Assembly (NCBI GenBank): GCA_964640635.1
Contig: CAZXFD010000001.1
Coordinates: 17,273-81,272, forward strand
Length of the DNA stretch: 64,000 nucleotides
Origin: an uncultured Gammaproteobacteria bacterium
Lineage (GTDB): Bacteria; Patescibacteriota; Patescibacteriia; UBA1558; S5-K13
Direction of reading: 5' to 3'
Part shown: positions 1 through 52,700 of the stretch, in pieces
How positions within the stretch are numbered: position 1 is the stretch's first letter
How the letters are laid out: every line of letters begins with the position of its first letter
Program-made: the position numbers and the translations under genes
The notes under the pieces: model-generated
Seen by the model: only the letters and a program-made list of their open reading frames with translations
What the model was told of the DNA's origin: nothing
Database searches by the model: none

Positions 1-3000
1 CTTTAAATAATGCATTTAGAACAGGCACAATAACTATAGAGTCTAGGGTTGTATCTACAACTTTGAATTTGAATTTGTTTGCTAGTTCAACTCTTCAAGT
101 AAGGCTAGGATGCTCAGTTTATAATTCAGATACAGATATCACAAGTAGGCAAACAAAATGTATTGATGAGTCGGGAACAACTCATCCTGGATTGACGTGT
201 TGTTGGAACTCTTCTTTAAATATGTGTATTAATGATGGAAGTCCTGTCTGCTCTCAGCCATATTTGAAATTAAAATCCTGTCAAAGAGATAGGGATGGCG
301 TAGTTATTTCACTTGGTTCTCCGTCTCCAATTACAAACATTACAAATGCCCCAACAGATGCTATTATTCACGCCCAGTTTAGCGGTAGAGGAGATGATTT
401 CTCTATGAATAAAAACACTTATGCAGGTGGAGTAGAGGTTTATTATTGCGGAAAAATATCTACTAGTAATTGTACTTTGGCTAATATTGGAACTACAGTT
501 TCAAATGATAGTGGAAATGATTTTGTCAATTATGGGCATACCAGTAATTTCGTTCCAAATGCTTGGTATAAAATTAAATTAAACGACTCTATTAAAGATA
601 ATAATGGAAATAGTCTTCAACCAGCACAATGGTATTTTAAAACAGCTTCAAGTACATGTCATGTTACGCAAGTAAATGTTGTTCCAAATCCTGTACAATT
701 ACCAGTATTAAGTAGTAAAAGAATAACAGCGCTTTGTTCTGACGACAGTTGTAATATTTGTGATTCGTCAGATTATCAATATTCTTGGGGGTCTAGAACT
801 CCATCTATAGCAAATGTATTAAATAGTAATGCAAATATTTCAACAACAACTGGTGTCTCTGTGGGTATGACTACAGTTAAAGTTGAGGTAAGTAAGGGTA
901 ATATACAAACTACTGGAAATGAAACAAATAGTGTATCAGTTAATAAAGATAGTTTTAGAATTTCAAATAGTGTAAATGTTATAGTTCAAGCAAATTGTAG
1001 TAGATTTAAAGACCTGGAAACATGTACAAATGGAGGTTGTTGTTTTAGCAATAATAGGTGTATATCAAATTTATCCACATGCAACTTTGGAAATTTTACA
1101 ATGAAATCATATTATCCAAGAATTGAGACTTGTCTTAATCCAATGATAAGGGCAGAGTTTGATGCAGTTGTAAATGGTGTTTCATTAAATATAGATAATG
1201 TAATTTTGGAAGATTTGAATAAAGAAACAAAGTGTAAAGATGACCCTCAGTCTATATGCTATGAAAAAGTACCAATTCAATTTTATTCTTACTCAAAATC
1301 AACAAGCACAAGTATAATAAATATTCAGATTATTCAAGCACTTCAACGAGAAAATAAATATAGAGTTAGATTGTTAAAATCCATAAGATCTATAGATGGA
1401 AAAAATTTGACTTGCGATGGTCCAGAATGTTCTTGGGAATTTAAAACAATTAATAGTCCATGTGAATTATCTTATGTAAATATAATAGATCCAGCAAATC
1501 ATTTTTATGAATATACTCAACCTAATGTGGAGAAAAATTTTATTGCTGAAGCAATAGATTCATTTGGTAATCCTATGGTCAGGGTAGATGGGTTTTATTC
1601 ATGGGATTGGCAATGGAGTTCACAAGATAATACTCTTGTAAATATTGTTGGATTAAATACAAATTTTTCAAGCACATTTAAATCTAATAATAAAAATGGA
1701 AACACAACTGTTACTATAAAAGCAAAAAAGAAAACCCCAGCAATTGGTTATACCGGAGAAGATATAAAAGATGAAGCAAATATTAGCTTGTTTATGTGTA
1801 ATAGTCCATGGATTTTTGAAGATTATGGATTTAGACTTAGGTATTGTATGGATGGTGGTCTCCCAGAATTGAATGATCGAAAAGATGCTGTTATTACAAT
1901 TACAAATGCACGAACCTCGGGTAACGGATTAATAAGAGAGTATATATTTAAATATAAAGAAGCAAAGCCAGTTGTATATTCTAACTTAGATTCTAAATCT
2001 AAAAAAGGAGTTTTATCTATTGCAACTGATAATAGATTAGGAGTAAAAATGTTTACTCAGGTTTTTGGAAGTATCTTTAATAATTTTGTTAGCAGGGTTT
2101 TAGCACAAAATTTGTCATATCAAGATGATTTGATAGGTATAAGAGTGTATGCAAATGACGATCATTTATCTCCTCGTGATTGGTATAGAAAAACAAATGA
2201 ATTTGATTTTAAGGGAAGTCCACAGGCAAAGAAAGTAGGTTTTTATGATGGTCTTATTGATGGTAGAACAACTTATATAAATGCTGGAAAAAAATCAATT
2301 TCTGTTGACGGAGCAATTGATATTCATACAGAAATTTATTTAATTTCAAAGAATCAAGACGCCTCCCCATTTACAAATAATATTTACGGTCAATTATTGG
2401 ATGGTTGGAAATTTAATGCGCAAGAAACTCTCATTGATCAAGAAAAAATAGCTCAAGACGTAAAAAGGTGGCAAGATTTAAGAACAATGGAAAATTCTTT
2501 GGAGTCCTATGCTAATTCAAATAAATTTTGTGCAAAAAAATTAGGTACATGTAGTCATTGCGCAGAGGGAAGTCTTAATTGTGATACATCTATTATTACT
2601 ATTGGAGGGGAGTGTTTTTCTATGTCTAATGTTAGCTGTAATTCAGATAGTGATTGTATTTTAAATCCATTAAATCTTCATAAATGCTTTAGAACCTACC
2701 CAGAACTTACAAGCGGTACATATATAAGAGGATTAACTAATTCATTGTGGGGCTCTTGGGATTCAAATTTGGGAGCAGCTTTGAAAACTACTTTACCAAA
2801 AGATCCAGAAAATAAATTTGGAAATTGTCAGGTAGATTGTCCTACTTGTGACGAAACAACGTGCTTTGATGATAAGAATAAAATTTTTAATTGTCCTACA
2901 GGCTCAAAAGTATATTATTATAAAGTGGGAACATATCAATCTAGTGCAATAAAATCTTTGAATTATTCAATATATTCTTTATTTAATTATTCAGATAAAT

Positions 3001-3104
3001 CAATGTGGTCTGGTAATAATGATGCTAAATTTTCTAATAATAAAATAGAGATATCAAATGATGGCGTTTGTGATGGAGAATCTGAGACAAATATGTATCA
3101 ATAA
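1..3104 (+). CDS. Large secreted cysteine-rich surface protein with a bacterial Ig-like (Big_2-like) segment; the 5' end is cut off by the window edge
   Basis: The frame of the listed ORF 63..3104 stays open back to position 3, so the N-terminus lies upstream of the window. More than 1000 aa, Cys- and Asn-rich, with repeated C-x-C and CC motifs. The segment around VKVEVSKG resembles Big_2 Ig-like domains. There is no C-terminal membrane anchor. Confidence 0.6.
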   Translation, partial: LNNAFRTGTITIESRVVSTTLNLNLFASSTLQVRLGCSVYNSDTDITSRQTKCIDESGTTHPGLTCCWNSSLNMCINDGSPVCSQPYLKLKSCQRDRDGVVISLGSPSPITNITNAPTDAIIHAQFSGRGDDFSMNKNTYAGGVEVYYCGKISTSNCTLANIGTTVSNDSGNDFVNYGHTSNFVPNAWYKIKLNDSIKDNNGNSLQPAQWYFKTASSTCHVTQVNVVPNPVQLPVLSSKRITALCSDDSCNICDSSDYQYSWGSRTPSIANVLNSNANISTTTGVSVGMTTVKVEVSKGNIQTTGNETNSVSVNKDSFRISNSVNVIVQANCSRFKDLETCTNGGCCFSNNRCISNLSTCNFGNFTMKSYYPRIETCLNPMIRAEFDAVVNGVSLNIDNVILEDLNKETKCKDDPQSICYEKVPIQFYSYSKSTSTSIINIQIIQALQRENKYRVRLLKSIRSIDGKNLTCDGPECSWEFKTINSPCELSYVNIIDPANHFYEYTQPNVEKNFIAEAIDSFGNPMVRVDGFYSWDWQWSSQDNTLVNIVGLNTNFSSTFKSNNKNGNTTVTIKAKKKTPAIGYTGEDIKDEANISLFMCNSPWIFEDYGFRLRYCMDGGLPELNDRKDAVITITNARTSGNGLIREYIFKYKEAKPVVYSNLDSKSKKGVLSIATDNRLGVKMFTQVFGSIFNNFVSRVLAQNLSYQDDLIGIRVYANDDHLSPRDWYRKTNEFDFKGSPQAKKVGFYDGLIDGRTTYINAGKKSISVDGAIDIHTEIYLISKNQDASPFTNNIYGQLLDGWKFNAQETLIDQEKIAQDVKRWQDLRTMENSLESYANSNKFCAKKLGTCSHCAEGSLNCDTSIITIGGECFSMSNVSCNSDSDCILNPLNLHKCFRTYPELTSGTYIRGLTNSLWGSWDSNLGAALKTTLPKDPENKFGNCQVDCPTCDETTCFDDKNKIFNCPTGSKVYYYKVGTYQSSAIKSLNYSIYSLFNYSDKSMWSGNNDAKFSNNKIEISNDGVCDGESETNMYQ

Positions 3105-3199: not shown

Positions 3200-4321
3200 T
3201 TGAACAATAAAATAGTTCAAGATAATATGAATAATTTTTCTACAGATCAAGATTCTTTATTGAAAGATGAGGCACAAAAGTATAAGGCCGATGATATTTT
3301 TTTAGATACAGATTATTCCTCGTCTTCTAATGTTATAAAACCAGGTGGTATTGCACCAAAGTCCCCAATTACAAATTATCGAGAATTAGTTAGTGAAATA
3401 GATAATTCTCAAGCAGATAAAATTAGGCCAAAATATTTTTTTATAGGATTGATTGTTCTAGTTTTAATTTTTGCATCTATAGGTTTTTATATATATAGTA
3501 AGTTTTTTATAAAGAAAAATGATTCTGGTCAAATATTTATAGATAATAATTCTCAAATAGAGAATCTTTTAAGCAAAGATGCAACAAGTAGTTTGTCTTT
3601 TGAGTCTAATTCAAGTCAGATTGTTATAAATGAAGATTCGGATAGTGATGGACTTAGCGACCAAGAAGAAAATATCTTTAAAACAGATAAAGATAAGATA
3701 GATACAGATGATGATGGGCTTTCTGATAAAGATGAAGTCAAAATGTATAAAACAGATCCATTGAATAGAGATTCGGATGGAGATAATTATTTAGATGGAG
3801 AAGAAGTAAAAAATGGATATGATCCAATGGGTCTAGGGAAACTTTTGAATTTTGATTTTTTAAACTCAAATTCAGAAAATGAGTCTATTTCTTTTAGTGT
3901 TGATATGGCAAATTGGGTAAGTATTAATTCTTATATCGAGTCTTTAAAAAATACATCTTTTTCTAATCCAATATATGATTTTAAATATCCAAATAATTTA
4001 GTAGTATCTATAGATGATAAAAAAATTATTTTATCTGGTGTAGATTTTAAAGTTTATTTTGAGGTAAGAGACAATAAATTAGAGCTTGATTTAAGTGATT
4101 GGGTGATGACTCAAAATGAATTTTCTTTATCTTCTAATAATTCTACTAATATAGCTAGCTTGGAAGCAATGATAGCTACTAGCGCTGGCACAGATTTCAA
4201 AAAAATTATTTTTATAGCAGACAAATCATCTGTTTATATATTTAAGTATATTGGCGATGTTGCTTTATTGGACAATATGAATATTTTCAAGTCTATCGCA
4301 TCTTCATTTAGTATAAAATAA
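3200..4321 (+). CDS. Membrane-anchored protein with thrombospondin type-3-like Ca-binding repeats
   Basis: An N-terminal hydrophobic helix (FFIGLIVLVLIFASIGFYIY) is followed by three DxDxDGxxDxxE repeats (DSDSDGLSDQEE, DTDDDGLSDKDE, DSDGDNYLDGEE) and then YDPMGLGKLL. The listed start is TTG; an ATG at 3227 is an alternative. Confidence 0.55.
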   Translation: MNNKIVQDNMNNFSTDQDSLLKDEAQKYKADDIFLDTDYSSSSNVIKPGGIAPKSPITNYRELVSEIDNSQADKIRPKYFFIGLIVLVLIFASIGFYIYSKFFIKKNDSGQIFIDNNSQIENLLSKDATSSLSFESNSSQIVINEDSDSDGLSDQEENIFKTDKDKIDTDDDGLSDKDEVKMYKTDPLNRDSDGDNYLDGEEVKNGYDPMGLGKLLNFDFLNSNSENESISFSVDMANWVSINSYIESLKNTSFSNPIYDFKYPNNLVVSIDDKKIILSGVDFKVYFEVRDNKLELDLSDWVMTQNEFSLSSNNSTNIASLEAMIATSAGTDFKKIIFIADKSSVYIFKYIGDVALLDNMNIFKSIASSFSIK

Positions 4322-12717: not shown

Positions 12718-14130
12718 ATGGTAAAAAAAGATATAAAAGTCAAGGAGAATACAGAATTAATGGACAAAATTATATCACTTTGCAAAAGAAGAGGCTTTGT
12801 TTATGCATCTTCTGAAATTTATGGTGGCTTTGCAGCTGTATATGATTATGGTCCATACGGGGTAGAGCTACTCAATAATATTAAGAGTTTTTGGTGGAAA
12901 TGTATGGTTCAGTATCGTGAAGATATTGTAGGATTAGATAGTGCTATTTTTATGCATCCAAAAATATGGGAAGCAAGTGGTCATGTTTCTGGTTTTTCAG
13001 ACCCCCTTACTGAGTGTTATAAGTGTCATTATAGATTTAGAGTAGATACAGCACTAGAGGAAATTGGAATTAAGGCTGATGAAAAAATGAGTTTGGAAGA
13101 AATAGAGACTGTTTTTAGAAAAAATATCAAAAAAATAAATTGCCCAAAATGTGGAGCTAATGATTTTACAAGTATAAAAAAATTTAATTTATTAGTTCAG
13201 TCTAATTTGGGAAATTTTTCTTCTGACGTTGACAAGGATCCAGTTTATTTAAGGGGGGAGACAGCTCAGGGAATTTATGTAAATTACAAAAATGTATTAG
13301 ACTCGTCACGCGTAAAAGTTCCATTTGGTATCGCTCAGATTGGTAAGGCTTTTAGAAACGAGATTACAGCTCGTCAATTTATATTTCGTACTCGTGAATT
13401 CGAGCAGATGGAAATGCAATATTTTGTCGCTCCAAAGGAGGATATGAAAGAATATGAAAAGTTAAAAGATTATAGATGGCAGTATTATTTGAATTTAGGC
13501 ATTAAAAAAGAAAATCTTAAATGGCATAAGCATGAGAATTTGGTTTTTTATGCAAAGGAAGCTTATGATATAGAATATAAATTTCCATTCGGTTTTAAGG
13601 AATTAGAAGGTCTTCATGCAAGAGGAAATTATGATTTGACTCAACATGCTAAGTTTTCTGGAAAAGATATGAACTATCTCGATCCTTATACAAATGATAA
13701 GTATATACCTCACATAGTAGAATCATCGGCTGGAGTGGGTCGAATATTTTTGGCGCTTATTTGCGAGGCTTACAAAGAAGAAAAAATTGGTGAAGAAGAA
13801 AGAGTTGTCTTGAAATTGAGCCCTATTATAGCGCCAATAAAAATTGCAGTTTTCCCACTTTTGAAAAATAAACCAGAACTTGTTGAAAAGGCGCACGAGA
13901 TATTTAAAAATTTAAGTAAATTATATAGGTGTGAGTTTGATGATAATGGAAACATTGGAAAAAGATATAGAAGACAAGACGAAATAGGAACTCCATATTG
14001 CCTGACTATTGATTTTGATACACTAGAAAATAACGAAGTCACGGTAAGAAGTAGAGATACAATGGATCAATGTAGGATAAAAATTGATGAGCTTCAAGAT
14101 TATTTTAAAGATAAATTAAATTGTTATTAG
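12718..14130 (+). CDS. glyQS: Glycine--tRNA ligase (dimeric class II type)
   Basis: N-terminus RRGFVYASSEIYGGFAAVYDYGPYG and class II motifs (FRNEITARQFIFRTREFEQMEMQYF); 470 aa. Confidence 0.85.
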   Translation: MVKKDIKVKENTELMDKIISLCKRRGFVYASSEIYGGFAAVYDYGPYGVELLNNIKSFWWKCMVQYREDIVGLDSAIFMHPKIWEASGHVSGFSDPLTECYKCHYRFRVDTALEEIGIKADEKMSLEEIETVFRKNIKKINCPKCGANDFTSIKKFNLLVQSNLGNFSSDVDKDPVYLRGETAQGIYVNYKNVLDSSRVKVPFGIAQIGKAFRNEITARQFIFRTREFEQMEMQYFVAPKEDMKEYEKLKDYRWQYYLNLGIKKENLKWHKHENLVFYAKEAYDIEYKFPFGFKELEGLHARGNYDLTQHAKFSGKDMNYLDPYTNDKYIPHIVESSAGVGRIFLALICEAYKEEKIGEEERVVLKLSPIIAPIKIAVFPLLKNKPELVEKAHEIFKNLSKLYRCEFDDNGNIGKRYRRQDEIGTPYCLTIDFDTLENNEVTVRSRDTMDQCRIKIDELQDYFKDKLNCY

Positions 14131-14156: not shown

Positions 14157-15038
14157 ATGAAAAAATATAAAAAAACATTATTTGCACTGATTCCTATTCT
14201 TATTTTGTTTGTTGTAAATATTGTAAAAGCACAAATACAGCTTCAAGTTGCCCTACCCACCGCAAATGATGGAACAATAAGTAGTGTATCAGGACTTAGC
14301 GATTATATAAGAATAGTATATAACTATGGAATTTATGCAGGTAGTGTTATCGCTGTTATAATGATTTCTATAAATGCCTTTAAGTGGGTATCAGCAGGTG
14401 GAAACAAAAGCACGATAGGAAAGGCAAAGGACGGAATGATAACTTCAATGGTGGGGCTTTTTGTTCTTTTTGGATCTTATCTTATTCTTAGCACAATAAA
14501 TGGAGAGCTCGTGGCCCTGAAAGCATTAGATGTTAGGCCTTTAGACACGAAGGCATATTTGGAAAAAGTAGAAAGATCTTCTGGTTTAGATACAGCGTAT
14601 TATGATGACATGTATGTTGCAGATCAAGGACGCGAGAGCGAAGGCAATCCAAGACCAGTAGCTGTATTGAGATGTGCTAATGATTCGGACACTAGTCATT
14701 ATTGCATTGACCTTCCATTAGGTCAGCCAGATATTCAATATGAGTTTAGCACTACAATAGGTGCATGCGAATATACTACTATGCAATGTGTTTCAAACGC
14801 TCGTAATTGCAATAAGACCTGCCTAAACTATAGTGATTGCGGAAATTTTTCTAATGGTTATTGTGATGGAGCGGGTCCACAAGTTTGTTGTAGTCGGCAA
14901 AAAAGACCTAATGAGACAACCTGTAGTCATAATATACAGTGTTTAAGTGGATGTTGTTGTAATTTTAGCTGGCCTACAAGAGATGTGTGTAGATCAACAG
15001 CAAATTGTAATTTACTTAATAAGAGCTGTATTCAGTAA
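14157..15038 (+). CDS. Pilin-like membrane protein (signal peptide plus two hydrophobic helices, a VirB2/TrbC-like topology) with a cysteine-rich C-terminal domain
   Basis: A signal-like N-terminus and the conserved core DYIRIVYNYGIYAGSVIAVIMISINAFKWVSAGGNKSTIGKAKDGMITSMVGLFVLFGSYLILSTINGELVALKAL, followed by about 150 aa with more than 20 Cys (GYCDGAGPQVCCS...). The assignment to a pilin fold rests on topology only. Confidence 0.6.
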   Translation: MKKYKKTLFALIPILILFVVNIVKAQIQLQVALPTANDGTISSVSGLSDYIRIVYNYGIYAGSVIAVIMISINAFKWVSAGGNKSTIGKAKDGMITSMVGLFVLFGSYLILSTINGELVALKALDVRPLDTKAYLEKVERSSGLDTAYYDDMYVADQGRESEGNPRPVAVLRCANDSDTSHYCIDLPLGQPDIQYEFSTTIGACEYTTMQCVSNARNCNKTCLNYSDCGNFSNGYCDGAGPQVCCSRQKRPNETTCSHNIQCLSGCCCNFSWPTRDVCRSTANCNLLNKSCIQ

Positions 15039-15061
15039 GTAGGTATATAATTTTTAATATA

Positions 15062-16057
15062 ATGCAAAACATTTTTTTGAAGAGATTAAAAGATGCTAAG
15101 ATAACTCATATTTTGTTTTTTGTTGTAATTTTTATTTTTTTTATTGTTAAAATTACAAAAGCAATACCACTCGAACATGCAATACCAGGGCCAGATGGAG
15201 ACATAAGTAGTGTAGAGGGTTTAAGTGATTACATAAGAATTGTATATAGTTATGGAATATATGCAGGTAGCGTCTTGGCGGTTGTCATGATATCTGTAAA
15301 TGCTTTTAAGTGGGTATCAGCAGGTGGGAATAAAGGCTCTATAGATAAGGCAAAAAATGGAATGATAATGTCTATAGTGGGACTTTTTCTTGTTTTTGGA
15401 TCTTATCTTATACTCAGTACAATAAATGGAGAGCTCGTGGCCTTGAAAGCATTGAATGTGTATCCTATATCACCTCAAGAATTTGTGGGAGTAGATTTTT
15501 CGACAATGAAACTTGCTGAAACTTTACAACAAGATATAGCAAATGATATTCGTTGTAATTTAATCGCAGATAATAATTGTCCACCAGGCAAGGTTTGTAG
15601 AAAGTTAAAGGATAAATATATTTGCACAGAACCACTAGGAGATAATATGGCCTGTGAAATACAAAGTGAATGTAGGCCCCCACTTACATGTAATGCGCAA
15701 ACATTGAAATGTGAAATCCCTCCTGTTTTACAGTGTGCAGGAATTTTAGATAATTATAGATGCTTTACAAATCTTTACCCTAGTCCCAGTTTTGGATATT
15801 GTGACAACAGACAATGTGTTCCTTGTCGTGGAGAAGGACAGATATGTACAACTATAACTAGAATAGTGCCTTTGGTAACTTTTGTAGCATGGCCCATGCA
15901 ATGTGTAAATAACAATAGTGGGATTTGTGGATTGCCATTTTATGAGGCAATTGAACCATGGGATCAATTACCGGATTCTTATAAAGCACCTAATACGGGT
16001 TCTTGTACTGGTGGTAGTTGGTTTCAGCATCAAGTTGGAAATTATTATTGTGAATAG
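15062..16057 (+). CDS. Tandem paralog of the 14157 gene with a different cysteine-rich C-terminal domain
   Basis: The core is nearly identical to its neighbour at the DNA level (for example ggatcttatcttatactcagtacaataaatggagagctcgtggcc). The C-terminal ~190 aa has EGF- or knottin-like Cys spacing. The first 13 aa (MQNIFLKRLKDAK) match the N-terminus of the downstream M16 peptidase. Confidence 0.6.
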   Translation: MQNIFLKRLKDAKITHILFFVVIFIFFIVKITKAIPLEHAIPGPDGDISSVEGLSDYIRIVYSYGIYAGSVLAVVMISVNAFKWVSAGGNKGSIDKAKNGMIMSIVGLFLVFGSYLILSTINGELVALKALNVYPISPQEFVGVDFSTMKLAETLQQDIANDIRCNLIADNNCPPGKVCRKLKDKYICTEPLGDNMACEIQSECRPPLTCNAQTLKCEIPPVLQCAGILDNYRCFTNLYPSPSFGYCDNRQCVPCRGEGQICTTITRIVPLVTFVAWPMQCVNNNSGICGLPFYEAIEPWDQLPDSYKAPNTGSCTGGSWFQHQVGNYYCE

Positions 16058-16119: not shown

Positions 16120-17376
16120 ATGCAAAATATATTTTTAAAAAAACTTAAAGATACAAAAGCGATTACTGTTTTGGTTTTGATAAAAACAGGTTCAAGATAT
16201 GAAAGTGATACAAATCGTGGTGTCGCGCATTTTTTGGAACATTTACTTTTTAAAGGAACCAAAAAAAGGCCCAATTCCCTTGCTATTACTAAAGAGCTAG
16301 ACAGTATTGGGGCAGAATTTAATGCCTTTACCTCAAAGGATAAAACGGGTTTTTATATAAAAGCACCTAAAGAGCATCTTGAAAAAGCGCTAGATGTTTT
16401 ATCTGATATGCTTTTTAATTCTTTGTTTTCTCCAAGAGAGATAGAAAAAGAAAGAGGAGTAGTGCTTGAAGAATTCAATATGTATTATGATAATCCAATG
16501 ATGTTTATTGATTCACTGTTGGAGTGTGGAGTTTTTCACGGACATAATTTAGGAAAATTAATCTTGGGGGATCAAAATGTTATAAAAAATATAAAAAGAG
16601 CAGAAATACTTAAGTTCTATAAAAAATATTATAATTTAGAAAATCTCGTAATAGGTGTTTCTGGAAATTTTGATGAGAATAAATTGCTTCCACTTGTAAA
16701 AAAATATTTCAAAATAAAAGAATACAATACTACAAATAATTTTGATGAATTTCTAGGAGATCAAAAACAGGAAAGAATACTTATCAAAAACAAAGAAACA
16801 GATCAGGTTCATACTGCTATTGGATTTTTAGGAACGTCTATATTTGATAAAGATTATTATTCAAGTAAGCTTCTTTCTATAATATTGGGTGGAAATATGA
16901 GCTCAAGATTATTTTTGAAGATTAGAGAAAAGATGGGGCTTTGTTATTATATAAAGTCATACACAGATAGTTATCAGGATACAGGAATATTTTCTATTAT
17001 ATCAGGCCTTGATAAATCAAGAATTGAAAGTGCAGTAGAGACAATTTTGAAAGAGTTAAAAAGTATTAAGCAAAATGGAGTTACAGAAGAAGAACTTAAG
17101 AGAGCAAAGGAGTTTATAGATGGAAAATTAGTTTTGAATCTTGAAGATAGTGCAAATATTGTTGAGTGGTATGGAGACCAATTGCTTTTACAAGGGAAAG
17201 CTATAACACCTGAAGAGTTTTTTAAACATATAAACAAAATCAGCATAAAGGATATCAAAAAAGTTGCAAATAGAATATTTCTAAAAGAAAAATTAAATCT
17301 TGCTGTAATAGGGCCATTTAAAAATTCCAAAGAATGGGAGTTAAAATTTAAAAATATTATAAATAAAATTTTATAA
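16120..17376 (+). CDS. M16 family (insulinase/pitrilysin-like) zinc peptidase
   Basis: Inverted zinc motif HFLEHLLFKGT (HxxEH); 418 aa. Confidence 0.8.
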   Translation: MQNIFLKKLKDTKAITVLVLIKTGSRYESDTNRGVAHFLEHLLFKGTKKRPNSLAITKELDSIGAEFNAFTSKDKTGFYIKAPKEHLEKALDVLSDMLFNSLFSPREIEKERGVVLEEFNMYYDNPMMFIDSLLECGVFHGHNLGKLILGDQNVIKNIKRAEILKFYKKYYNLENLVIGVSGNFDENKLLPLVKKYFKIKEYNTTNNFDEFLGDQKQERILIKNKETDQVHTAIGFLGTSIFDKDYYSSKLLSIILGGNMSSRLFLKIREKMGLCYYIKSYTDSYQDTGIFSIISGLDKSRIESAVETILKELKSIKQNGVTEEELKRAKEFIDGKLVLNLEDSANIVEWYGDQLLLQGKAITPEEFFKHINKISIKDIKKVANRIFLKEKLNLAVIGPFKNSKEWELKFKNIINKIL

Positions 17377-23890: not shown

Positions 23891-24870
23891 TTACATTTGA
23901 CATTGTGCGCCTTGATGACACAGATTTTTTCTTTTACAGCTCTCTTTGCATTGTGCGTGTTCCGGATCTCCAAAGAGATGCGGTATTTCTTCTTCGGTAA
24001 CGGCAACTTGTTTATTGCCAGGATGACCGAAAATTAACACAAAATATCTTTTGTCATCTTTATCAAAGAATGCAGTTTCTTGTCTTGCTTTTTCTATGAT
24101 GTCAGACACAGTTACATTTGTGAGATGGTTGATGATGATACAACTTTTTGCACCAAGCTCTTGGAAGTTTTGAGCAGCTGATTCAATTCGCATTTGTTCC
24201 TCCTCAATCTTATGATTCACATGGTTGTGGGAATTTTACATTTATTGGCCAAAAATTTTGGGGATTACAGGGGTTTGTTTCCACCTCTTTTATAAAGGCT
24301 ATTGGTGGAATAATTCTTTTTTCAGTATGGAAAATTTGGTAATGTTTCAAACTTTCATCGTGACATTGAATGCGGACAACCTTTCCGATTTGTAAATCGT
24401 CTATATAACACTCAGATATTCCAATTAGCACTTGATTTTGTTTGGAAAAATCAGTTTTTGAATCGTAGCGTTGTTTAACAAATTCCACTGCTTGAATGTT
24501 CATATTCTCTCCTAGATTTTTTTGATATTTTTTTGTTTTTCGATATTACTTGATTTGCTATATGATACAAAAACCCATTTAGATTAGAAGCAATCAAATC
24601 TTTTTTGATTTTATCTATCTTTGCTTTTTGTAATAAAAATCTTACGTGAGGCTCTATGCACTCCGCAATAAATATCATTTGACTCCCTTCATCATCTTTT
24701 AAAAGGTGAATGTTTGGAATAAGACTTTTTATGACATTATTGGATGTAAAGAGTTGAAGTTCTTTAGATATATCTTCAAACAAACCACTAAGATTTTCTT
24801 CTCGTATCTCACAATCAAAATTACAATTAAAACATTTTTGATCGCATTTTATAAGTCTTTTGTCTAGCAT
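23891..24870 (-). pseudogene. Three consecutive overlapping ORFs (131, 97 and 109 aa) in successive frames: possibly a frameshifted gene of about 325 aa, or three small genes
   Basis: The ORFs 24870-24475, 24503-24210 and 24220-23891 overlap by 29 and 11 nt. The first carries the Cys cluster CDQKCFNCNFDC. No family was recognised. Confidence 0.3.
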
Positions 24871-25004
24871 ATATCCTCCTAATTTATAACTATTTAAAGA
24901 ATGATAATCTTTTTTTTATTTTCTGTCAATTCTCGCTTGTTAGAGTACGGTGTAATTAAAAAAGCACCCTTCGACTTTGCTCAGGGCGCTTTTCTGTTTG
25001 AAAA

Positions 25005-26996
25005 TTATATAAGTAGTCCTATTATAAGAAGCGCAACAATATTAACAATTTTTATCATAGGATTAATTGCAGGTCCTGCTGTATCCTTGTAAGGATCTCC
25101 AACCGTGTCTCCTGTTACAGCGGCTTTGTGAGCATCAGAGCCTTTTCCGCCATGATTTCCAAGTTCTATATATTTTTTAGCATTATCCCAAGCACCTCCT
25201 CCAGATGTCATAGAAATTGCTACAAATATTCCAGTAATAATTGTTCCCATTAAAAGTCCTCCAAGAGCAGGCACGCCAAGTATAAAGCCAACAAGTATTG
25301 GAGCAAGTACTGGAATAAGAGATGGAACTATCATTTCTCTAATAGCAGATTTTGTAACAATATCAACAGTTCTACCATAATCTGGTTTTTCTGTGTTTAG
25401 CATTATCCCTGGTTTTTCTTTGAACTGTGCCCGGACGTCTTCTACTACCGCTCCTGCTGCACGTCCTACTGCTTGCATTGATAGAGCACCAAAGTAGTAT
25501 GGTAGAAGTCCACCAAGAAATAATCCTATTAGAACATATGGATCGTTGATTAAAAATTGAACACCATTTGCACTTTGAGAAAAATCTGCAAATAATACTA
25601 GGGAGGCTAGAGCAGCGCTACCAATAGCATAGCCTTTTGTAACTGCCTTTGTGGTATTTCCAACAGCATCTAGTGGGTCTGTAATATTTCGGACATCATC
25701 TCCTAGTTCTGCCATTTCTGCGATTCCACCAGCATTGTCAGTAATAGGACCATAAGCATCAATAGTAACAATAATTCCAGCCATTGAAAGCATCGAAACT
25801 GCTGCAATAGCAATTCCATATAATCCCGCTAGAGAATATGCACCAAGAATAGCAAGGACAATTGCAATAATAGGAAGTCCCGTAGATTTCATAGAAACTG
25901 CAAGTCCTGCAATTACATTTGTGCCATGTCCTGTTTCAGACGCTTTTGCAATTTGTTTTACTGGAGCGTATTTTGTTGAAGTAAAATATTCTGTAATGAC
26001 TACAAGAGCACCAGTAACTAATAGTCCAATAATAGAAGCTAAATACAAATTCATCACACTATATTTTCCATTATCTTTCATTACCCAATTTATGACAGGA
26101 TAAAATGCAATCGCAGAAAGAACTCCTGCTGCAATAAGGCCTTTGTAAAGAGCCATCATGATATTTTGGGATTTTCCAAGTCTGATAAAATAAATTCCTA
26201 TTATTGATGCAATAATTGAAACAGCACCAAGAATAAGTGGGAATAATATATACATTTCATTTGATCTACCAAATGTCAAAACCCCAAGAATCATTGCTGC
26301 AATTGAAGTAACGGCATATGTTTCAAAAAGGTCTGCGGCCATTCCAGCACAATCTCCTACGTTATCACCAACATTGTCAGCAATTACAGCAGGGTTTCTT
26401 GGATCATCTTCTGGAATTCCTGCTTCAACTTTTCCAACGAGATCTGCGCCTACATCAGCGGCTTTTGTAAATATTCCGCCTCCAAGTCTAGCAAATATAG
26501 AAATAAGAGATCCTCCAAATCCAAATCCAATTAAAGCATGGATATCACGAGTTATAAGATAAAATCCTGCAGTTCCAAGAAGTGCAAGTCCTACAACAAG
26601 CATTCCAGTAATACTTCCGCCTTTTACAGCAACACCAAGCGCTTTTTTCATGCTGGTTTTTGCAGCTTCAGTAGTTGTGACATTTGCACGAACCGAGATG
26701 TTCATTCCAATATATCCAGTAAGAGCAGATAGTATCGCACCTATTATAAATGCAGTAGCAGTAGTCCATCCAAGACTTGGTACAAATCCAATAATTATAA
26801 ATAGTGGTATTGCCACCATAAACACTGTTTTGTATTGTCTGTTTAAAAATGCTTTTGCACCCGCTTGAATAGCATGAGCAATTTCTTGCATTTTTTCATT
26901 GCCTTTTGGAAGCTTAAGAATTGATCTAATTGAAATTGCCCCATATAGTATTGCTACTAGAGCACTTCCAATTATCAGAATTGAAGTGATTTCCAT
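25005..26996 (-). CDS. hppA: Membrane-bound proton/sodium-translocating pyrophosphatase
   Basis: 663 aa with about 15 TM helices and the signature [22 protein letters not shown]. Confidence 0.92.
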
Positions 26997-47592: not shown

Positions 47593-48258
47593 ATGAAGTT
47601 CAAAGATATATGGATCAAAAAAGATCCTGATTCTAAGCCACAAGATCAGAAACCACATATTAGTGTTGGTGGAACGAGTGTGCCAGTGGTGCCAGCAACA
47701 CAACAACATTCTTCAATGAGTGTTTCGTTGCCGAATCAGTCTGAAAATGATGGGGTTGATAATGAATTTAATGATGAATTTGAGAATTCTCTAAAAAACA
47801 TTCAGTTACCCCAGGGTTTCGTAGAATTCATCACTTTGATGGATGAACTTGAAGATACTATCACAGATGTTAAGTTGCGAGTAAAGGCGGCGCTTAAGCA
47901 CGCTATCGGCCATGGTATTTCTAAGGAACAGATTATTTCTTTTTTAACAAAAGAATTAACTACCGTTCAGGAAACAGCCAATAATATTAGAAATGATATC
48001 GAATCGCAAGTTGCTGCTAAAATCAAAGAAAGCGCAACAAAAGTCCAATCCTGCCTACAACAGATTGAAGATATTGATAATAAAATTACAGAACTTCAAA
48101 ATCAGAGGGCTCAGCTTGTTTCTCAGAAAGGATCGGCTGAAGCAGAAAATTCGGTTATAAATCAGAAAAAAGATAAGGCTTTATCTAAGCTTCAATCTGC
48201 GCTGAATTTTCAGCATAACGAAATAAATAATCTATTATCCTACGTTCAACAAGCGTAG
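47593..48258 (+). CDS. Uncharacterised soluble coiled-coil protein (GC-rich island)
   Basis: Strong RBS gaggagg; 221 aa with a Q/P-rich N-terminus followed by about 140 aa of heptad-like helix. Confidence 0.5.
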   Translation: MKFKDIWIKKDPDSKPQDQKPHISVGGTSVPVVPATQQHSSMSVSLPNQSENDGVDNEFNDEFENSLKNIQLPQGFVEFITLMDELEDTITDVKLRVKAALKHAIGHGISKEQIISFLTKELTTVQETANNIRNDIESQVAAKIKESATKVQSCLQQIEDIDNKITELQNQRAQLVSQKGSAEAENSVINQKKDKALSKLQSALNFQHNEINNLLSYVQQA

Positions 48259-48272
48259 GAGGGGAGATAAGG

Positions 48273-49385
48273 ATGGAAACACCAAATTTACCAACACTCA
48301 AATCATCGCTGGATACATTTCTTTCTAAGAAGGAAAAGATTTCGGGCTATCTGTTAACGGGAGGTATAATCATAGCTGCCGTAATCGGATTAAATGCCAT
48401 ACTGCCCTGGTTATCCAATATGCTTGGGAATCTGATAGCAGTTGTTGGAAAGTTAATTACCTTGGGTATAATGGGGATCGCTGCTGCTGGTTTGGTAGTC
48501 ATTGCTCTTTCAGAGCGTACGCATACTTTAGTCAAAATCGCTTTTGCCAGATTGGCTAGAGGTGCCACAATGACTTTTATCAAGTATTCACCGTGGACAA
48601 TTCCTGAAATTTACATAGAGTATATTGATAAGAAGGCGCGAGATATTTATCAAAAAATAACAAACGTACTAGCTATTAATAACTCTATCAAAAAAGCTCA
48701 TGGCAAAAATGTTGAAATTATTGAAAGTAATGATGAAACTTGCAGGTCTTTACAGGAACGATATTTCAAGAATGGTGTTTGGGTAAGTGAAGAACATCAT
48801 AATCTTTTCAGAGAAAAGGCCAGTGATACAGATTTTCGGACTAGATCCAATAAAAATCTTCAAAAACAAATTGACCGGTTGGAGTTTTATTTGACCGTGC
48901 TCAAAAAGTTTGAGCAAGCTTTTAAGTATCGCAGAAATGTTTTGAGAAACTTTTGCGATGCTATCGTGCTTGAATACAATGCAACCAAAGAATCCGCAGA
49001 AGTTACCCGAGAATTAGCTACTCTTTTTGGAACAGATGACATGAAAAAGGTTTTTGACATGTCAGTACAATTTATGCAAGATCGTATGAGCAATTTTGTC
49101 GCAGAGACAGATACCTTTTTCCAGACGAATATGTCTGCTCTCACCGAAATGGATCTTAGCCAAGACGTCGCCGAAGACGCCTATATGAATAGGTTGAAAC
49201 AAATGGGTGATAAGGCTGATCTTTTAATTGAGCAAGCAGATCAGGATCAAAAACTCATTACTTCTGCCGGTTCCGGAAAAGATATGATGAAAATCATCAT
49301 GGAACAAAAGACAGATGGCGTTTATGTTCCCGCTGGTCGTAATACTGGAACATTCGGTAGTAAGAAAAACTACCTTGACATTTAA
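48273..49385 (+). CDS. Uncharacterised membrane protein with two TM helices and a long coiled-coil cytoplasmic domain (GC-rich island)
   Basis: RBS ggagg; Gly-rich helices (GGIIIAAVIGLNAILPWL and LGIMGIAAAGLVVIAL) followed by about 270 aa of helical sequence. Confidence 0.5.
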   Translation: METPNLPTLKSSLDTFLSKKEKISGYLLTGGIIIAAVIGLNAILPWLSNMLGNLIAVVGKLITLGIMGIAAAGLVVIALSERTHTLVKIAFARLARGATMTFIKYSPWTIPEIYIEYIDKKARDIYQKITNVLAINNSIKKAHGKNVEIIESNDETCRSLQERYFKNGVWVSEEHHNLFREKASDTDFRTRSNKNLQKQIDRLEFYLTVLKKFEQAFKYRRNVLRNFCDAIVLEYNATKESAEVTRELATLFGTDDMKKVFDMSVQFMQDRMSNFVAETDTFFQTNMSALTEMDLSQDVAEDAYMNRLKQMGDKADLLIEQADQDQKLITSAGSGKDMMKIIMEQKTDGVYVPAGRNTGTFGSKKNYLDI

Positions 49386-49419
49386 ACTCATAACAAATAA
49401 AGAAAAAATAGGAGAAATC

Positions 49420-50964
49420 ATGTTCAAGAATTTAACTACCTTTGCGAAGATATTCATTATTTTCGTTGTTGTGGCTATAGTGGTTACTATTAGCTATTTC
49501 AGTTTTGACAAACTTGCCCCCGAAGGTAATTCTGTCAATACCAGCAAGCTCTCGGAAGATGTGAGACAAGCCGTCAAAGACGGCACTCCGCTTGTCACAA
49601 TATGCTTTAATACCTGGCTCGGATTCTCCGGAGGAATAGCATACAACGGTGGCACAGAGGCTTCCAAAAGTTCCAGATATTTCACTGAACAGGGTATTTT
49701 AGTTCAGTTTAAACTCATGGATGACTTTGAGGCTTCTCGCAACGCCTTTCGTTCCGGTGACATCGATATGATGTGGACTACCGTGGACTCTTACCCTACA
49801 GAGACCGATGGTCTCAAAGAGTTTGAGCCGCAGTTTTTATTTCAGATTGACTGGTCTCGCGGTGGAGATGCCGTTGTCGTAAGACGTGGAATTAACACTG
49901 TTAATGAGTTGCGTGGTAAGAAAATTGCTTGCGCACTCGGAGCGCCTAGTCATAGTTTGATAATTAACACCCTAGAAGCCGCAGGAATTCCATATAATGC
50001 AGTTGAAATAATTGCAATGCCAACAGCTATTCAAGCCGCCGATGCTTTTAAAGCTGGTCAAGTTGATGCTGCTGTGGTTTGGGCTCCGGATGATGACGTG
50101 TGCGTCGAAGCTGTTCCTGGATCCAAAAAACTTTTCACTACCAAAGAAGCCACGAACATTATTGCGGATGGTTTCTATGCAAAGAAAAGGTGGGCACTGG
50201 ACAACAAAGACACTGTTGTCAAGGTTGCTGCCGGTTTCATGGTCGGTAATGCAGAGATAAATACTGATCCCTCCGCAAAGCAGAGGGCAGTTGAAGTTAT
50301 GTCGGTCGCTCTTGGTCAAAAGGCAGATTTTTGCCTTAGTGGCATAAATAATGTCCGTTTGTCTACGGTCGGGGATAATATGAATTTTCTTGGTCTTGGT
50401 AGCGGATATACAGGAATCACTGCTGAAGCGCTTTACAGACGAATGGCAACTGCGTATCAGCAAGTTGATTATTTAAAAAGCGCGCCTCCAAGTTGGAATC
50501 AAGTTTATGACAAATCTATTATTCCAGCTGTTGCACAAAAAATTCCACCTACTGGAAGTCAAGCACCGGAAAGCGGAGCTGAATTTAGACGATTAAGTAA
50601 TTCTGCTGATTTGGATGTCCGAGCTTCTAAAGATATGACTGTGAATTTCAGTCCCGGTTCATCATATTTGGATGATAATGCTAAACAGCTTATAGACGTA
50701 GGCTTTGCCCCAGTAGCTCAACAATTTGCACAGATGCACATTCGTGTATCTGGGCATACGAGTACAGATGGAAGCCGCGATGTAAATGTTAGGCTTTCCA
50801 GAAGTCGTGCGCAAGCAGTCGTCGACTATCTTGTTCAGCAGTATGGATTTAGTCCGAATAGGTTTATTGTAGCCGGTTATGGACCTGATCATCCAATCGC
50901 AACAAACGATACAGAAGAAGGTCGCGCCAAAAACAGGCGGACTCAATTCGAACTCGTAGAATAA
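49420..50964 (+). CDS. ABC transporter substrate-binding protein (NMT1/SsuA/TauA-like) fused to a C-terminal OmpA/MotB-like peptidoglycan-binding domain
   Basis: The start is taken at ATG 49420 with RBS aggag; an N-terminal TM helix and an SsuA-like core (KIACALGAPSHSLIINTLEAAGIPYNAVEI...DAAVVWAP). The C-terminus reads SGHTSTDGSRDVNVRLSRSRAQAVVDYL...GYGPDHPIATNDTEEGRAKNRRTQFEL (OmpA_C). Confidence 0.7.
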   Translation: MFKNLTTFAKIFIIFVVVAIVVTISYFSFDKLAPEGNSVNTSKLSEDVRQAVKDGTPLVTICFNTWLGFSGGIAYNGGTEASKSSRYFTEQGILVQFKLMDDFEASRNAFRSGDIDMMWTTVDSYPTETDGLKEFEPQFLFQIDWSRGGDAVVVRRGINTVNELRGKKIACALGAPSHSLIINTLEAAGIPYNAVEIIAMPTAIQAADAFKAGQVDAAVVWAPDDDVCVEAVPGSKKLFTTKEATNIIADGFYAKKRWALDNKDTVVKVAAGFMVGNAEINTDPSAKQRAVEVMSVALGQKADFCLSGINNVRLSTVGDNMNFLGLGSGYTGITAEALYRRMATAYQQVDYLKSAPPSWNQVYDKSIIPAVAQKIPPTGSQAPESGAEFRRLSNSADLDVRASKDMTVNFSPGSSYLDDNAKQLIDVGFAPVAQQFAQMHIRVSGHTSTDGSRDVNVRLSRSRAQAVVDYLVQQYGFSPNRFIVAGYGPDHPIATNDTEEGRAKNRRTQFELVE

Positions 50965-51037
50965 GAAAATAATTCCGGAGTGGACAGACGAATGTCTGCC
51001 CACTCCTTTTATTTCTAACTCAAAAAAAGGAGAGTTT

Positions 51038-51835
51038 ATGTTCAGTCAGCTTTTCCAACTCCGCGGATCTTTAAGCAAAAAAGTATCAGGTTTGTGTGAA
51101 TTTATAGGTATCTTGGTAATACTCATTATTTGGACAGTAGTGTCAGAAATGGGTGTTGTTCCCAAGGGAATACTTCCCTCACCCATCAAGATTCTTCAAT
51201 CACTTCCGGAACTCCATTTTGAAGATGCGCTTGTGAGAAATTTATTTTACTCATTTAAGCTCAATTTGTTTGGTGGAATGGAAGCAGTAGCACTTGCTAT
51301 ACCACTTGGTTTTTTAATAGGTCTTGTGCCTGTTTTAAAGGCAATTTTTGGTAGATATATAGAAGCGATTCGATTTTTGCCACTTACAGCGACCATTGGT
51401 TTATTTATTGTAGCTTTTGGACTTGATACAAACATGAAAGTTCAATTTCTTGCCTTTGCGATATTTATTTATTTAGTACCGCAAGTCAAAAGAAGAGTTG
51501 AAGAAGTAGAGGATGTGTATGTTCAAACAGCTCAAACAATAGGTGCTAATGCCTGGCAAAAAATTAGAATAGTATTTGTTCCAGCGGTTTTTGCAAGGGT
51601 TTATAATGATATTGTAAATCTTATAGCTTTGTCATGGACCTATGTAATCGTAGCAGAAATGGTAAACACATCTGGCGGTGGCATAGGATCTCTTACATTT
51701 ATTTGTTTCCGACAAGGAAGAATTGACAAGGTCTATGCAATTTTGATAGTGATTATTCTCTTCGGAATATTACAGGATTTTGTCATGAAGTTGTTGGGAA
51801 AAGTTTTATTCTCTTATTACAAAGAGGGGTGCTAA
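51038..51835 (+). CDS. ABC transporter permease (NitT/TauT family)
   Basis: Six TM helices and a conserved AEMVNTSGGGIGSL loop. Confidence 0.8.
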   Translation: MFSQLFQLRGSLSKKVSGLCEFIGILVILIIWTVVSEMGVVPKGILPSPIKILQSLPELHFEDALVRNLFYSFKLNLFGGMEAVALAIPLGFLIGLVPVLKAIFGRYIEAIRFLPLTATIGLFIVAFGLDTNMKVQFLAFAIFIYLVPQVKRRVEEVEDVYVQTAQTIGANAWQKIRIVFVPAVFARVYNDIVNLIALSWTYVIVAEMVNTSGGGIGSLTFICFRQGRIDKVYAILIVIILFGILQDFVMKLLGKVLFSYYKEGC

Positions 51836-51836
51836 C

Positions 51837-52700
51837 ATGGGAGCAATTCAACAAGTAACAATGTTTCACGACCCAAGTGGTAAAATGCCGGATCACATTT
51901 CTTTTATTGATAATCCTGCTTGGCCCAATATCATTGAGTTCAAGAAGATAAGTCAGTATTATCCTGGCAGAAAAGACCCCGTGATTCTTGATTTGGATTT
52001 GATCATTGAGGATAAACCAGGTGAGGGTCAGTTTGTGGTAATACTTGGACCATCTGGGTGTGGAAAGTCAACCTTGCTTCGCTATGCATGCAAACTACAA
52101 AACCCAACATCTGGCGAAGTTTTGTTAAATGGCCGTATTATCAATCACAATGATCATATCAATATGGTTTTCCAGAATTACTCTTCCTTTTGGTGGTATA
52201 CGGTGCTTGAAAATGTCATGCTCCCGCTTCTTATTCAAGGTATCTCAAGAAAAGAAGCTAAAGAAAGAGCAATGGATATTATCAATAAGGTTGGTCTTTC
52301 CGGTCATGAAAACAAGTGGGCTATATACCCCGCTTTATCAGGAGGACAGCTGCAGCGAGTAGCCATTGCAAGGTCTCTCATCACAAATCCCAAGATTCTT
52401 CTTATGGATGAGCCATATGGAGCGCTTGATATTGTGACAAGGTTTAAAATGCAAGAGCTTATTTCCCATATCTATGACACAACAGATAATATTACCATTA
52501 TCTTTGTGACTCATGATATTGAGGAAGCAGTTTTCCTCGCAGACGACATTTATGTCATGGATGCAAATCCGGGACGTATAGTCCAAAGGTTTCATCCAAA
52601 TCTTCCCTCGGTAAGAACCTGGGAAACCAAGGATGATCTAGTATTCATTCAATCCGTTCACGAAGTTCGCAACTTCATGCGTTCTTTTGAACGCAAATAA
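51837..52700 (+). CDS. ABC transporter ATP-binding protein
   Basis: Walker A GPSGCGKST, signature LSGGQLQRVAIARSL and Walker B LLMDEPYGALD. Confidence 0.85.
   Translation: MGAIQQVTMFHDPSGKMPDHISFIDNPAWPNIIEFKKISQYYPGRKDPVILDLDLIIEDKPGEGQFVVILGPSGCGKSTLLRYACKLQNPTSGEVLLNGRIINHNDHINMVFQNYSSFWWYTVLENVMLPLLIQGISRKEAKERAMDIINKVGLSGHENKWAIYPALSGGQLQRVAIARSLITNPKILLMDEPYGALDIVTRFKMQELISHIYDTTDNITIIFVTHDIEEAVFLADDIYVMDANPGRIVQRFHPNLPSVRTWETKDDLVFIQSVHEVRNFMRSFERK

Follow-up and report, generated by a model that had tools for sequence, protein, structure and literature searches.

Adjacent genes for extended VirB2-like proteins with different cysteine-rich C-terminal domains in a conserved GlyRS-M16 slot of Patescibacteria

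This work concerns two adjacent plus-strand genes in a 64 kb stretch of DNA (the window), here named p1 (14157-15038) and p2 (15062-16057). We propose that both encode extended VirB2-like pilins, which would display a cysteine-rich binding module, and that they lie in a slot, bounded by the genes of GlyRS and an M16 peptidase, where the C-terminal cassette is exchanged. As a whole, this is the best explanation of the findings, and we hold it with moderate confidence. The open reading frame (ORF) list of the window gives p1 293 and p2 331 amino acids (aa), and confirms the pair exactly where an earlier reading made from the letters of this DNA, hereafter the sequence-only reading, had put it. 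By its ORF, Pfam matches and synteny, p1 is assigned as an extended VirB2-like (PF18895-type) protein with a cysteine-rich C-terminal domain of 'p1-type', and by its ORF, Pfam matches and the comparison of the slot among genomes, p2 is assigned as a second such protein with a C-terminal domain of 'p2-type'.

The two genes share a direct repeat of 266 nucleotides (nt), 14268-14533 and 15194-15459, with 82% DNA identity. At the protein level, p1 and p2 are 72% identical over 114 aa in BLASTP (E 1e-50, far beyond chance) and 78% identical over a 96-aa core, for which the synonymous divergence (dS) is about 0.83, the nonsynonymous divergence (dN) 0.17 and dN/dS about 0.2. The sequence-only reading had called the shared block almost identical, which is more than these values allow, and its coordinates of 14250-14525 and 15190-15465 are 14 nt out of register (an offset of 940 instead of the true 926). 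It had further described the block as a signal peptide followed by two helices; the two helices do form the block of high identity, together with the segment that precedes them, but the signal peptides are far less alike, being only 27-43% identical at the aa level in sliding windows. At about codon 130-135 the similarity stops abruptly, with only background beyond.

The p1 core covers aa 38-133 (14268-14555, plus strand), as delimited by the repeat, the match to a core profile and a predicted local distance difference test score (pLDDT) of 84-94, and the p2 core covers aa 45-140 (15194-15481, plus strand), as delimited by the repeat, the core profile and the AlphaFold2 model. In both proteins AlphaFold2 predicts the core as a helical hairpin with a pLDDT of about 90 or above, whose hydrophobic helices lie at residues 45-79 and 84-114 in p1, connected by the basic loop AGGNKSTIGKAKDG, and at residues 52-86 and 91-121 in p2. 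The loop sequence SAGGNKSTIGKAKDG is found in p1, and the loop residues A43, G44, G45, N46, I50, A53 and K54 (AGGN..I..AK) are invariant across 14 diverse cores, a conservation that appears to exceed the needs of a passive anchor. Ahead of the core, aa 1-25 of p1 (MKKYKKTLFALIPILILFVVNIVKA, followed by Q; 14157-14231, plus strand) read as a signal peptide, with a basic n-region, a hydrophobic core and V-K-A ahead of the predicted cut, and form a separate N-terminal helix in the AlphaFold2 model. An identity as type IV pilins or Flp pilins was considered and ruled out, as neither the G/FxxxE nor the Flp G/xxxxEY motif is present and no Pfam family of type IV pilins or Flp matches; the N-termini MKKYKKTLFALIPILILFVVNIVKAQ... 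(p1) and MQNIFLKRLKDAKITHILFF...KITKAIP... (p2) resemble ordinary Sec signal peptides and carry no class III motif.

The likeness of the core to VirB2/TrbC, which the sequence-only reading had recognized, is upheld by the scores against the Pfam family PF18895 (T4SS_pilin), by the relatives, by profile comparison and by the predicted helical hairpin. Among the 116 nearest relatives, 113 match PF18895 (E <= 0.001) and seven also match PF04956 (TrbC/VirB2; best E 1.5e-13). A profile of 164 cores, compared by hhalign with seven annotated VirB2/TrbC proteins from plasmid records, aligned over 61 columns in register across both helices with a score of 25.1 (E 5e-4), whereas the reversed control reached 15.6 and none of 30 column shuffles exceeded 15.3. 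PF04956 gave no match with p1 or p2 even at E <= 1, NCBIfam held nothing useful for either protein, and searches of PDB sequences by phmmer with p1 and p2 and with the core profile returned chance matches or none. Judging by the homology of the core, PF18895, the family of Patescibacterial VirB2-like pilins, includes p1 and p2 as extended members; it has been reported as abundant in this phylum, frequently in tandem arrays (PMC12102498; PMC12857230).

Behind the core follow 160 residues in p1 (aa 134-293; 14556-15035, plus strand) and 191 in p2 (aa 141-331; 15482-16054, plus strand), in agreement with the extensions of 150-190 aa described earlier. The previous count of more than 20 cysteines in each was too high; both proteins have 18, all C-terminal to the core. 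They include in p1 the CC and CCC clusters already noticed for one extension (Cys 244-245 and 266-268), and show in p2 an EGF/Dickkopf-like spacing. Neither C-terminal domain has a Pfam relative; LDL-receptor EGF and granulin gave matches that are not significant (E 2.8-6.4), and profile searches with both cassette alignments found no match in PDB sequences at E <= 10. Outside the core, the sole common element is indeed GYCD (NGYCDG in p1 and FGYCDN in p2), since BLASTP finds no further significant similarity. The p1 type recurs in the syntenic gene of the closest genome found, Candidatus Komeilibacteria bacterium S5_K13 (L004; Patescibacteria, Parcubacteria group; 39% identity, E 9e-33), in locus L009 (36%, E 9e-26) and in protein P0061 (40%, E 7e-24), and all 18 cysteines of p1 are invariant in the alignment of these four sequences (A8, 36-41% identity). 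In P0018, P0019 and P0027 the C-terminal region is of the p2 type, with an identity of about 30% and E values between 1e-13 and 1e-9; alignment A7 has 17 cysteine columns that are invariant among its five sequences. By these alignments, the two C-terminal domains are two separate conserved families and not diverged copies of one another, so that the 'hyper-divergent tips' of the sequence-only reading are better described as two different families with homologs elsewhere and invariant cysteines. Because the cysteines are invariant, and because a DsbA-like gene lies directly upstream of the paralogs in secretion clusters of relatives (see below), each domain is probably compact and held by its 18 conserved cysteines as disulfides.

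A cysteine module, QYEF...C...C...G[FY]CDG...CC, stands after the core in p1 (aa 196-248, window 14742-14900) and before the core in P0019, P0025 and P0061. Its occurrence at either end fits a topology in which both ends of the core face outwards from the membrane, and cysteine modules appear to be shuffled between the two extracellular ends.

Compared with its syntenic ortholog, p1 has a dN of 0.54 in the C-terminal domain and 0.32 in the core, against 0.04-0.12 in four flanking genes, which marks the slot gene as fast-evolving. Secreted effectors, too, typically change fast while keeping their cysteines, and p1 and p2 could alternatively be precursors of a released cysteine-rich peptide or toxin, with a hairpin that serves in export or immunity and a C-terminal domain that is cleaved off and acts on a host or competitor in the manner of bacteriocins or nodule cysteine-rich peptides. 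Such a precursor would fit the conserved linker after helix 2 (TIN(P/G)xLV...), the weak match of p2, but not p1, to Dickkopf_N (19.3 bits, below the cutoff of 25) and the Nodulin_late matches in two of the 116 relatives. However, all matches to known cysteine-rich peptide families fall below thresholds, and domains of 160-190 aa are much larger than such peptides. No recognizable cleavage motif, peptidase or ABC exporter partner is present at the locus, and GlyRS and the M16 peptidase were neighbors already when the slot was still without a pilin gene. A released peptide or toxin is thus a very improbable account of the pair.

The position of the pair is conserved. GlyRS (12718-14130) forms the upstream boundary of the slot and the M16 peptidase the other, and the order GlyRS, one pilin-core gene, M16, AI-2E and RsmI is found in L004, L006, L009, L010 and L011, with p1 being the syntenic ortholog of the single slot gene of S5_K13 (L004:9884-10762). 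L014 starts inside the slot gene directly upstream of M16 and so provides the M16 side only; the sequence of this gene is contained in P0027. In more distant relatives, which came from a metagenome scan with the M16 peptidase (at most 41% identity), GlyRS adjoins M16 and the slot is empty. A functional link to the neighboring M16 peptidase was ruled out, as the GlyRS-M16 adjacency is older than the insertion of the pilin gene.

The M16 sequences divide the genomes into two groups: in one, the window and L004 are 90% identical and L011 is 69% identical to both; in the other, L006, L009 and L010 are mutually 86-90% identical and L014 is 77-79% identical to these; the identity between the two groups is 58-60%. 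The identity of the cores tracks these groups, with 59-78% and 62-69% within and 36-45% between them. The cassette types, on the other hand, are spread over both: the window, L004 and L009 carry the p1 type, and the window and L014 the p2 type. The close relatives L009 (p1 type) and L010 have unrelated C-terminal domains, the match of L006 to the p1 type is weak (E between 1e-5 and 4e-3), and the L010 type is found again on cores near the clade of the window (P0022 and P0025). The core follows the species grouping and the cassette type does not; this discordance among the slot genes points to an exchange of cassettes on a conserved core, for which recombination, with the core and the M16 gene as conserved flanks, would be the simplest reading. 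Variation of the C-terminal cassette across related bins, to which the sequence-only reading had pointed as a matter to look for, is found in the slot genes.

p2 is an extra gene, which none of the six related genomes examined has in this slot. Its 5′-end (15062-15124, plus strand; aa 1-21, MQNIFLKRLKDAKITHILFF...) copies, in diverged form, the start of the M16 peptidase gene (16120-16182, plus strand; MQNIFLKKLKDTKAITVLVL...), the source of the duplicated segment, and provides p2 with its start codon and with the basic n-region of the signal peptide. The two are 57% identical over 21 aa by tblastn, and the first 13 codons of p2 (MQNIFLKRLKDAK) agree with the M16 start in 11 of 13 aa and 29 of 39 nt, which is the best non-self match on both strands of the window; the same M16 N-terminus is present in L004, L006, L009, L011 and L014. 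A tandem duplication or an insertion seems to have left its scar at the start of p2. p2 is a three-part chimera, in which copies of the M16 5′-end and the p1 core are joined to the cassette type of the L014 slot. A tandem duplication with breakpoints in the M16 5′-end and in the signal-peptide region of p1, followed by cassette replacement, could have given rise to p2, and the p1 core would have been copied at about the time when the lineage of the window split from its nearest sequenced relative, although we infer the order of these events.

The sequence-only reading had instead suggested that gene conversion acts on the core while an exposed tip diversifies, which would mean an old tandem pair whose cores are continually homogenized and whose tips diverged in place. 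The cores of p1 and p2 are indeed 78% identical to one another but only 32-43% identical to cores bearing the same C-terminal types elsewhere, and the abrupt end of similarity near codon 130-135 would also agree with conversion. Nevertheless, the core dS of 0.83 means that no recent homogenization has occurred and is comparable to that of flanking genes between the window and S5_K13 (dS 0.47-1.0), and this nearest relative holds only p1 in the slot. As the divergence of the two cores is similar to that of the species and the nearest relative has a single gene, a single old event, either a partial duplication or a recombination, is enough. Divergence in place also fails to account for the tips, which belong to two conserved families, each occurring singly in the same slot of other genomes, and for the C-terminal domains of p1 and its ortholog, which are still 39% identical at comparable dS. 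Gene conversion of an old pair is therefore an improbable origin.

The extended architecture is not confined to this locus. A full HMMER scan of 1.84 billion representatives returned 8557 proteins at E <= 1e-3; it was used in place of a word-index search with p2, which gave only p2, p1 and one distant protein, and p2 alone had no match in contigs of species-representative genomes. Among the 147 nearest cluster representatives, 132 have a C-terminal extension of at least 100 aa, and 118 of these 132 contain at least six cysteines, with a median of 200 aa and 10 cysteines. In 37 of the 147, at least 100 aa, often cysteine-rich, also stand between signal peptide and core; 12 are multi-core proteins and just two are no longer than 170 aa. 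The query contained the C-terminal domain and may favor long proteins in the ranking, but most of the best-scoring stretches are the core alone. Short PF18895 matches have 113-144 aa (e.g., P0005-P0007 and P0012), compared with the 293 and 331 aa of p1 and p2. Other relatives instead carry SLT (10 of 116), Amidase_2, NlpC/P60, VanY or peptidase C39-like domains (e.g., P0024 and P0031, the latter resembling L005:9539-10768). The claim that no pilin family carries such C-terminal domains therefore holds only for the literature, in which a published description of an extended or fused architecture was not found, while among the nearest relatives in the databases it is the norm. p1 and p2 are an extended, cassette-bearing form of the known Patescibacterial VirB2-like pilins.

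A further arrangement was observed in the same searches, namely single polypeptides with three to eight tandem pilin-like cores: P0049 (820 aa), P0024 (612 aa), P0020, P0021 and P0033. P0024 adds a C-terminal lytic transglycosylase.

In relatives, extended pilin-core genes are also found within type IV secretion system (T4SS) clusters. A conserved cluster is complete in six loci, and a seventh (L007) has its downstream half only; the order is VirB6-like (355 aa), PrgI (VirB3-like), TraC-like, VirB4, three ORFs, DsbA-like and an extended pilin-core gene. The pilin-core proteins of the clusters have 334-497 aa, with an Amidase_2 domain in S5_K13 and cysteine-rich sequences in several others, and up to 10 kb from the clusters there was no detectable short VirB2-like gene. 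Thus, extended pilin-core proteins are conserved members of T4SS operons in this clade, and p1 and p2 are their paralogs at a housekeeping locus. The DsbA-like protein is a membrane-anchored thioredoxin (Pfam Thioredoxin_4/DSBA) and is always encoded directly upstream of the extended pilin-core gene (L005:8826-10768, and also in L007, L008, L012, L013, L015 and L017), which suggests dedicated disulfide formation for the extended pilins. This neighbor is unmentioned in the papers on Patescibacterial pilins (PMC12102498, PMC12857230).

We propose that p1 and p2 carry a Sec-type signal peptide followed by a two-helix membrane hairpin, the latter supported by both sequence and model. By the positive-inside rule and the precedent of VirB2, the short lysine-rich loop (AGGN..I..AK) would face the cytoplasm, or the lumen in an assembled filament, and the mature N-terminus and the C-terminal domain of 160-190 aa would be outside the cell. 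The binding module could be displayed on the cell surface or on a filament assembled by the T4SS, for contact with host or partner cells, while the core would evolve with the genome and the cysteine-rich domain would be swapped as a cassette between lineages at the fixed GlyRS-M16 slot. In this scheme we infer the handling by the T4SS, the surface or filament display and the binding role.

Several findings weigh against this proposal. p1 and p2 score 20.5 and 26.2 bits with PF18895 (PF18895.5), both below the gathering score of 26.6, although p2, unlike p1, is listed in a precomputed annotation made with PF18895.6. The hhalign probability of the core against VirB2 is just 30.5%. A Foldseek search of the p2 model against the PDB gave nothing below E 1, helical hairpins being not discriminating. 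The AlphaFold2 models, made from shallow 17-row alignments, are uninformative for the C-terminal domains (pLDDT < 50). T4SS genes are absent from the 64 kb window, as judged by Pfam and by a homolog search with the T4SS cluster proteins. Finally, we know of no precedent in solved conjugative pili for a domain of 17-20 kDa on every subunit, and polymerization into a filament is uncertain.

These points bear on the main rival explanation, in which the hairpin only tethers extracellular domains to the cytoplasmic membrane and is never handled by a T4SS or polymerized. A passive anchor of this kind would suit a pair that lies in a housekeeping operon far from T4SS genes, and the fusion of the same core to SLT, Amidase_2, NlpC/P60 and VanY domains, which could act locally on the wall. 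Solved VirB2/TraA pilins are roughly 7 kDa, which the bulky extensions do not resemble, and three to eight concatenated cores, as in P0024 and P0049, are hard to square with the extraction of subunits into a filament. Against it, loop and helix residues are nearly invariant in diverse members and the dN/dS of the core is about 0.2, which points to a specific interaction, and extended paralogs are the only VirB2-like genes found in the VirB4 clusters of relatives, at a constant position. A passive anchor is therefore fairly unlikely in our judgment, and the T4SS-handled pilin with a displayed cassette is preferred. Linkage to virB4 is in any case not obligatory, since a pilin lies near virB4 in just 1135 of 1948 assemblies (PMC12102498).

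The nearest known systems are the VirB2-like pilin arrays of Patescibacteria, of which 441 were reported in 383 assemblies (PMC12102498; reviewed in PMC12857230), including the six pilins of an array that is essential in Southlakia epibionticum ML1 and the 'Sec secreted array' of TM7x (PMC12102498; PMC12857230). p1 and p2 resemble them in a PF18895-type core, with scores below the gathering score, and share with them the Sec signal peptide, the two-helix hairpin, tandem paralogs, the phylum and a proposed role in host contact. In contrast to the reported arrays, whose paralogs are usually near virB4 and have a mean identity of 25% (maximum 54%), the cores of p1 and p2 are 72-78% identical, and these proteins of 293 and 331 aa, with cysteine-rich domains of 160-190 aa, are encoded between GlyRS and M16; extended or fused pilins are unmentioned in the array papers (PMC12102498, PMC12857230).

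With VirB2/TrbC, such as A. tumefaciens VirB2 (PF04956), p1 and p2 have in common a long signal peptide, two hydrophobic helices and a short basic loop, which the profile comparison places in register at a probability of 30.5%. However, the VirB2 precursor has about 120 aa, lacks an extra domain and is encoded beside virB1 and virB3, and p1 and p2 have no direct PF04956 match. The head-to-tail cyclization of VirB2 would be impossible with a large C-terminal domain. The fusion of a pilin module to a C-terminal functional or binding module, by which the filament carries an adhesin, resembles the bimodular type IV pilins, e.g., PilB and PilC of Streptococcus sanguinis, although these have an unrelated fold and machinery, with a class III signal peptide and the G/FxxxE motif that p1 and p2 lack. 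CdiA-CT and Rhs proteins likewise combine a conserved, lineage-following N-terminal part for delivery or anchoring with exchangeable C-terminal ends that recur across lineages, but p1 and p2 have no sequence relation to them, no immunity gene and no evidence of toxicity, and their cassettes are cysteine-rich domains.

The wider locus is of housekeeping character. FtsA, FtsZ, NrdR and a ClpB-like protein are encoded in the neighborhood, with GlyRS directly upstream of the pair and the M16 peptidase, an AI-2E transporter, RsmI and MetRS directly downstream; gyrase B, GroEL and PheRS, among others, lie farther along the window. Because the gaps are just 26 nt (GlyRS-p1), 23 nt (p1-p2) and 62 nt (p2-M16), p1 and p2 are probably co-transcribed with their neighbors. 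Promoter and terminator scans gave background level only. The four flanking genes are 82-92% identical at the aa level to those of S5_K13, which is syntenic with the window. An assembly artifact as the source of the tandem was ruled out by an independent Logan assembly of run SRR10083293 (L001), which contains, in unchanged order, the 3′ part of p1, the whole of p2 and the beginning of the gene that follows.

The window has a G+C content of about 30% and nearly all its genes are on one strand. At its start lie two candidate surface proteins, one of 1013 aa with a bacterial Ig-like (Big_5) domain (63-3104) and one of 373 aa with a bacterial TSP3 repeat (3200-4321). A short minus-strand run at 23891-26996, which includes a 663-aa H+-pyrophosphatase, breaks the uniform plus orientation and the positive GC skew. 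The block 48000-52700, with a G+C fraction of 0.39-0.40 compared with 0.28-0.35 elsewhere, encodes an OmpA-domain/substrate-binding fusion, an ABC permease and an ABC ATPase, and may have been horizontally acquired.

The sole genetically tractable Patescibacterium cannot live as an epibiont without its T4SS and VirB2-like pilins, whose role was called 'completely unknown' (PMC11665869; PMC12857230). As a more speculative step, which we consider unlikely but worth stating, the VirB2-like subunit handled by the essential T4SS of this clade could itself be the host-recognition device, with exchangeable disulfide-rich receptor-binding cassettes oxidized by a dedicated DsbA-like enzyme and with the GlyRS-M16 slot as a hot spot where recombination swaps or adds cassettes and so alters host range; if true, T4SS filaments would include a modular 'pilin-adhesin' class without a described counterpart. 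The apparent lack of VirB1 in most of these genomes may find its explanation in the cell-wall hydrolases that are fused to the pilin core. The large cysteine-rich outer domains of many pilin-like proteins in this phylum, the exchange of cassettes at a conserved locus and the DsbA-like gene beside the T4SS-linked copies would provide candidates for the determinants of partner specificity in these bacteria.

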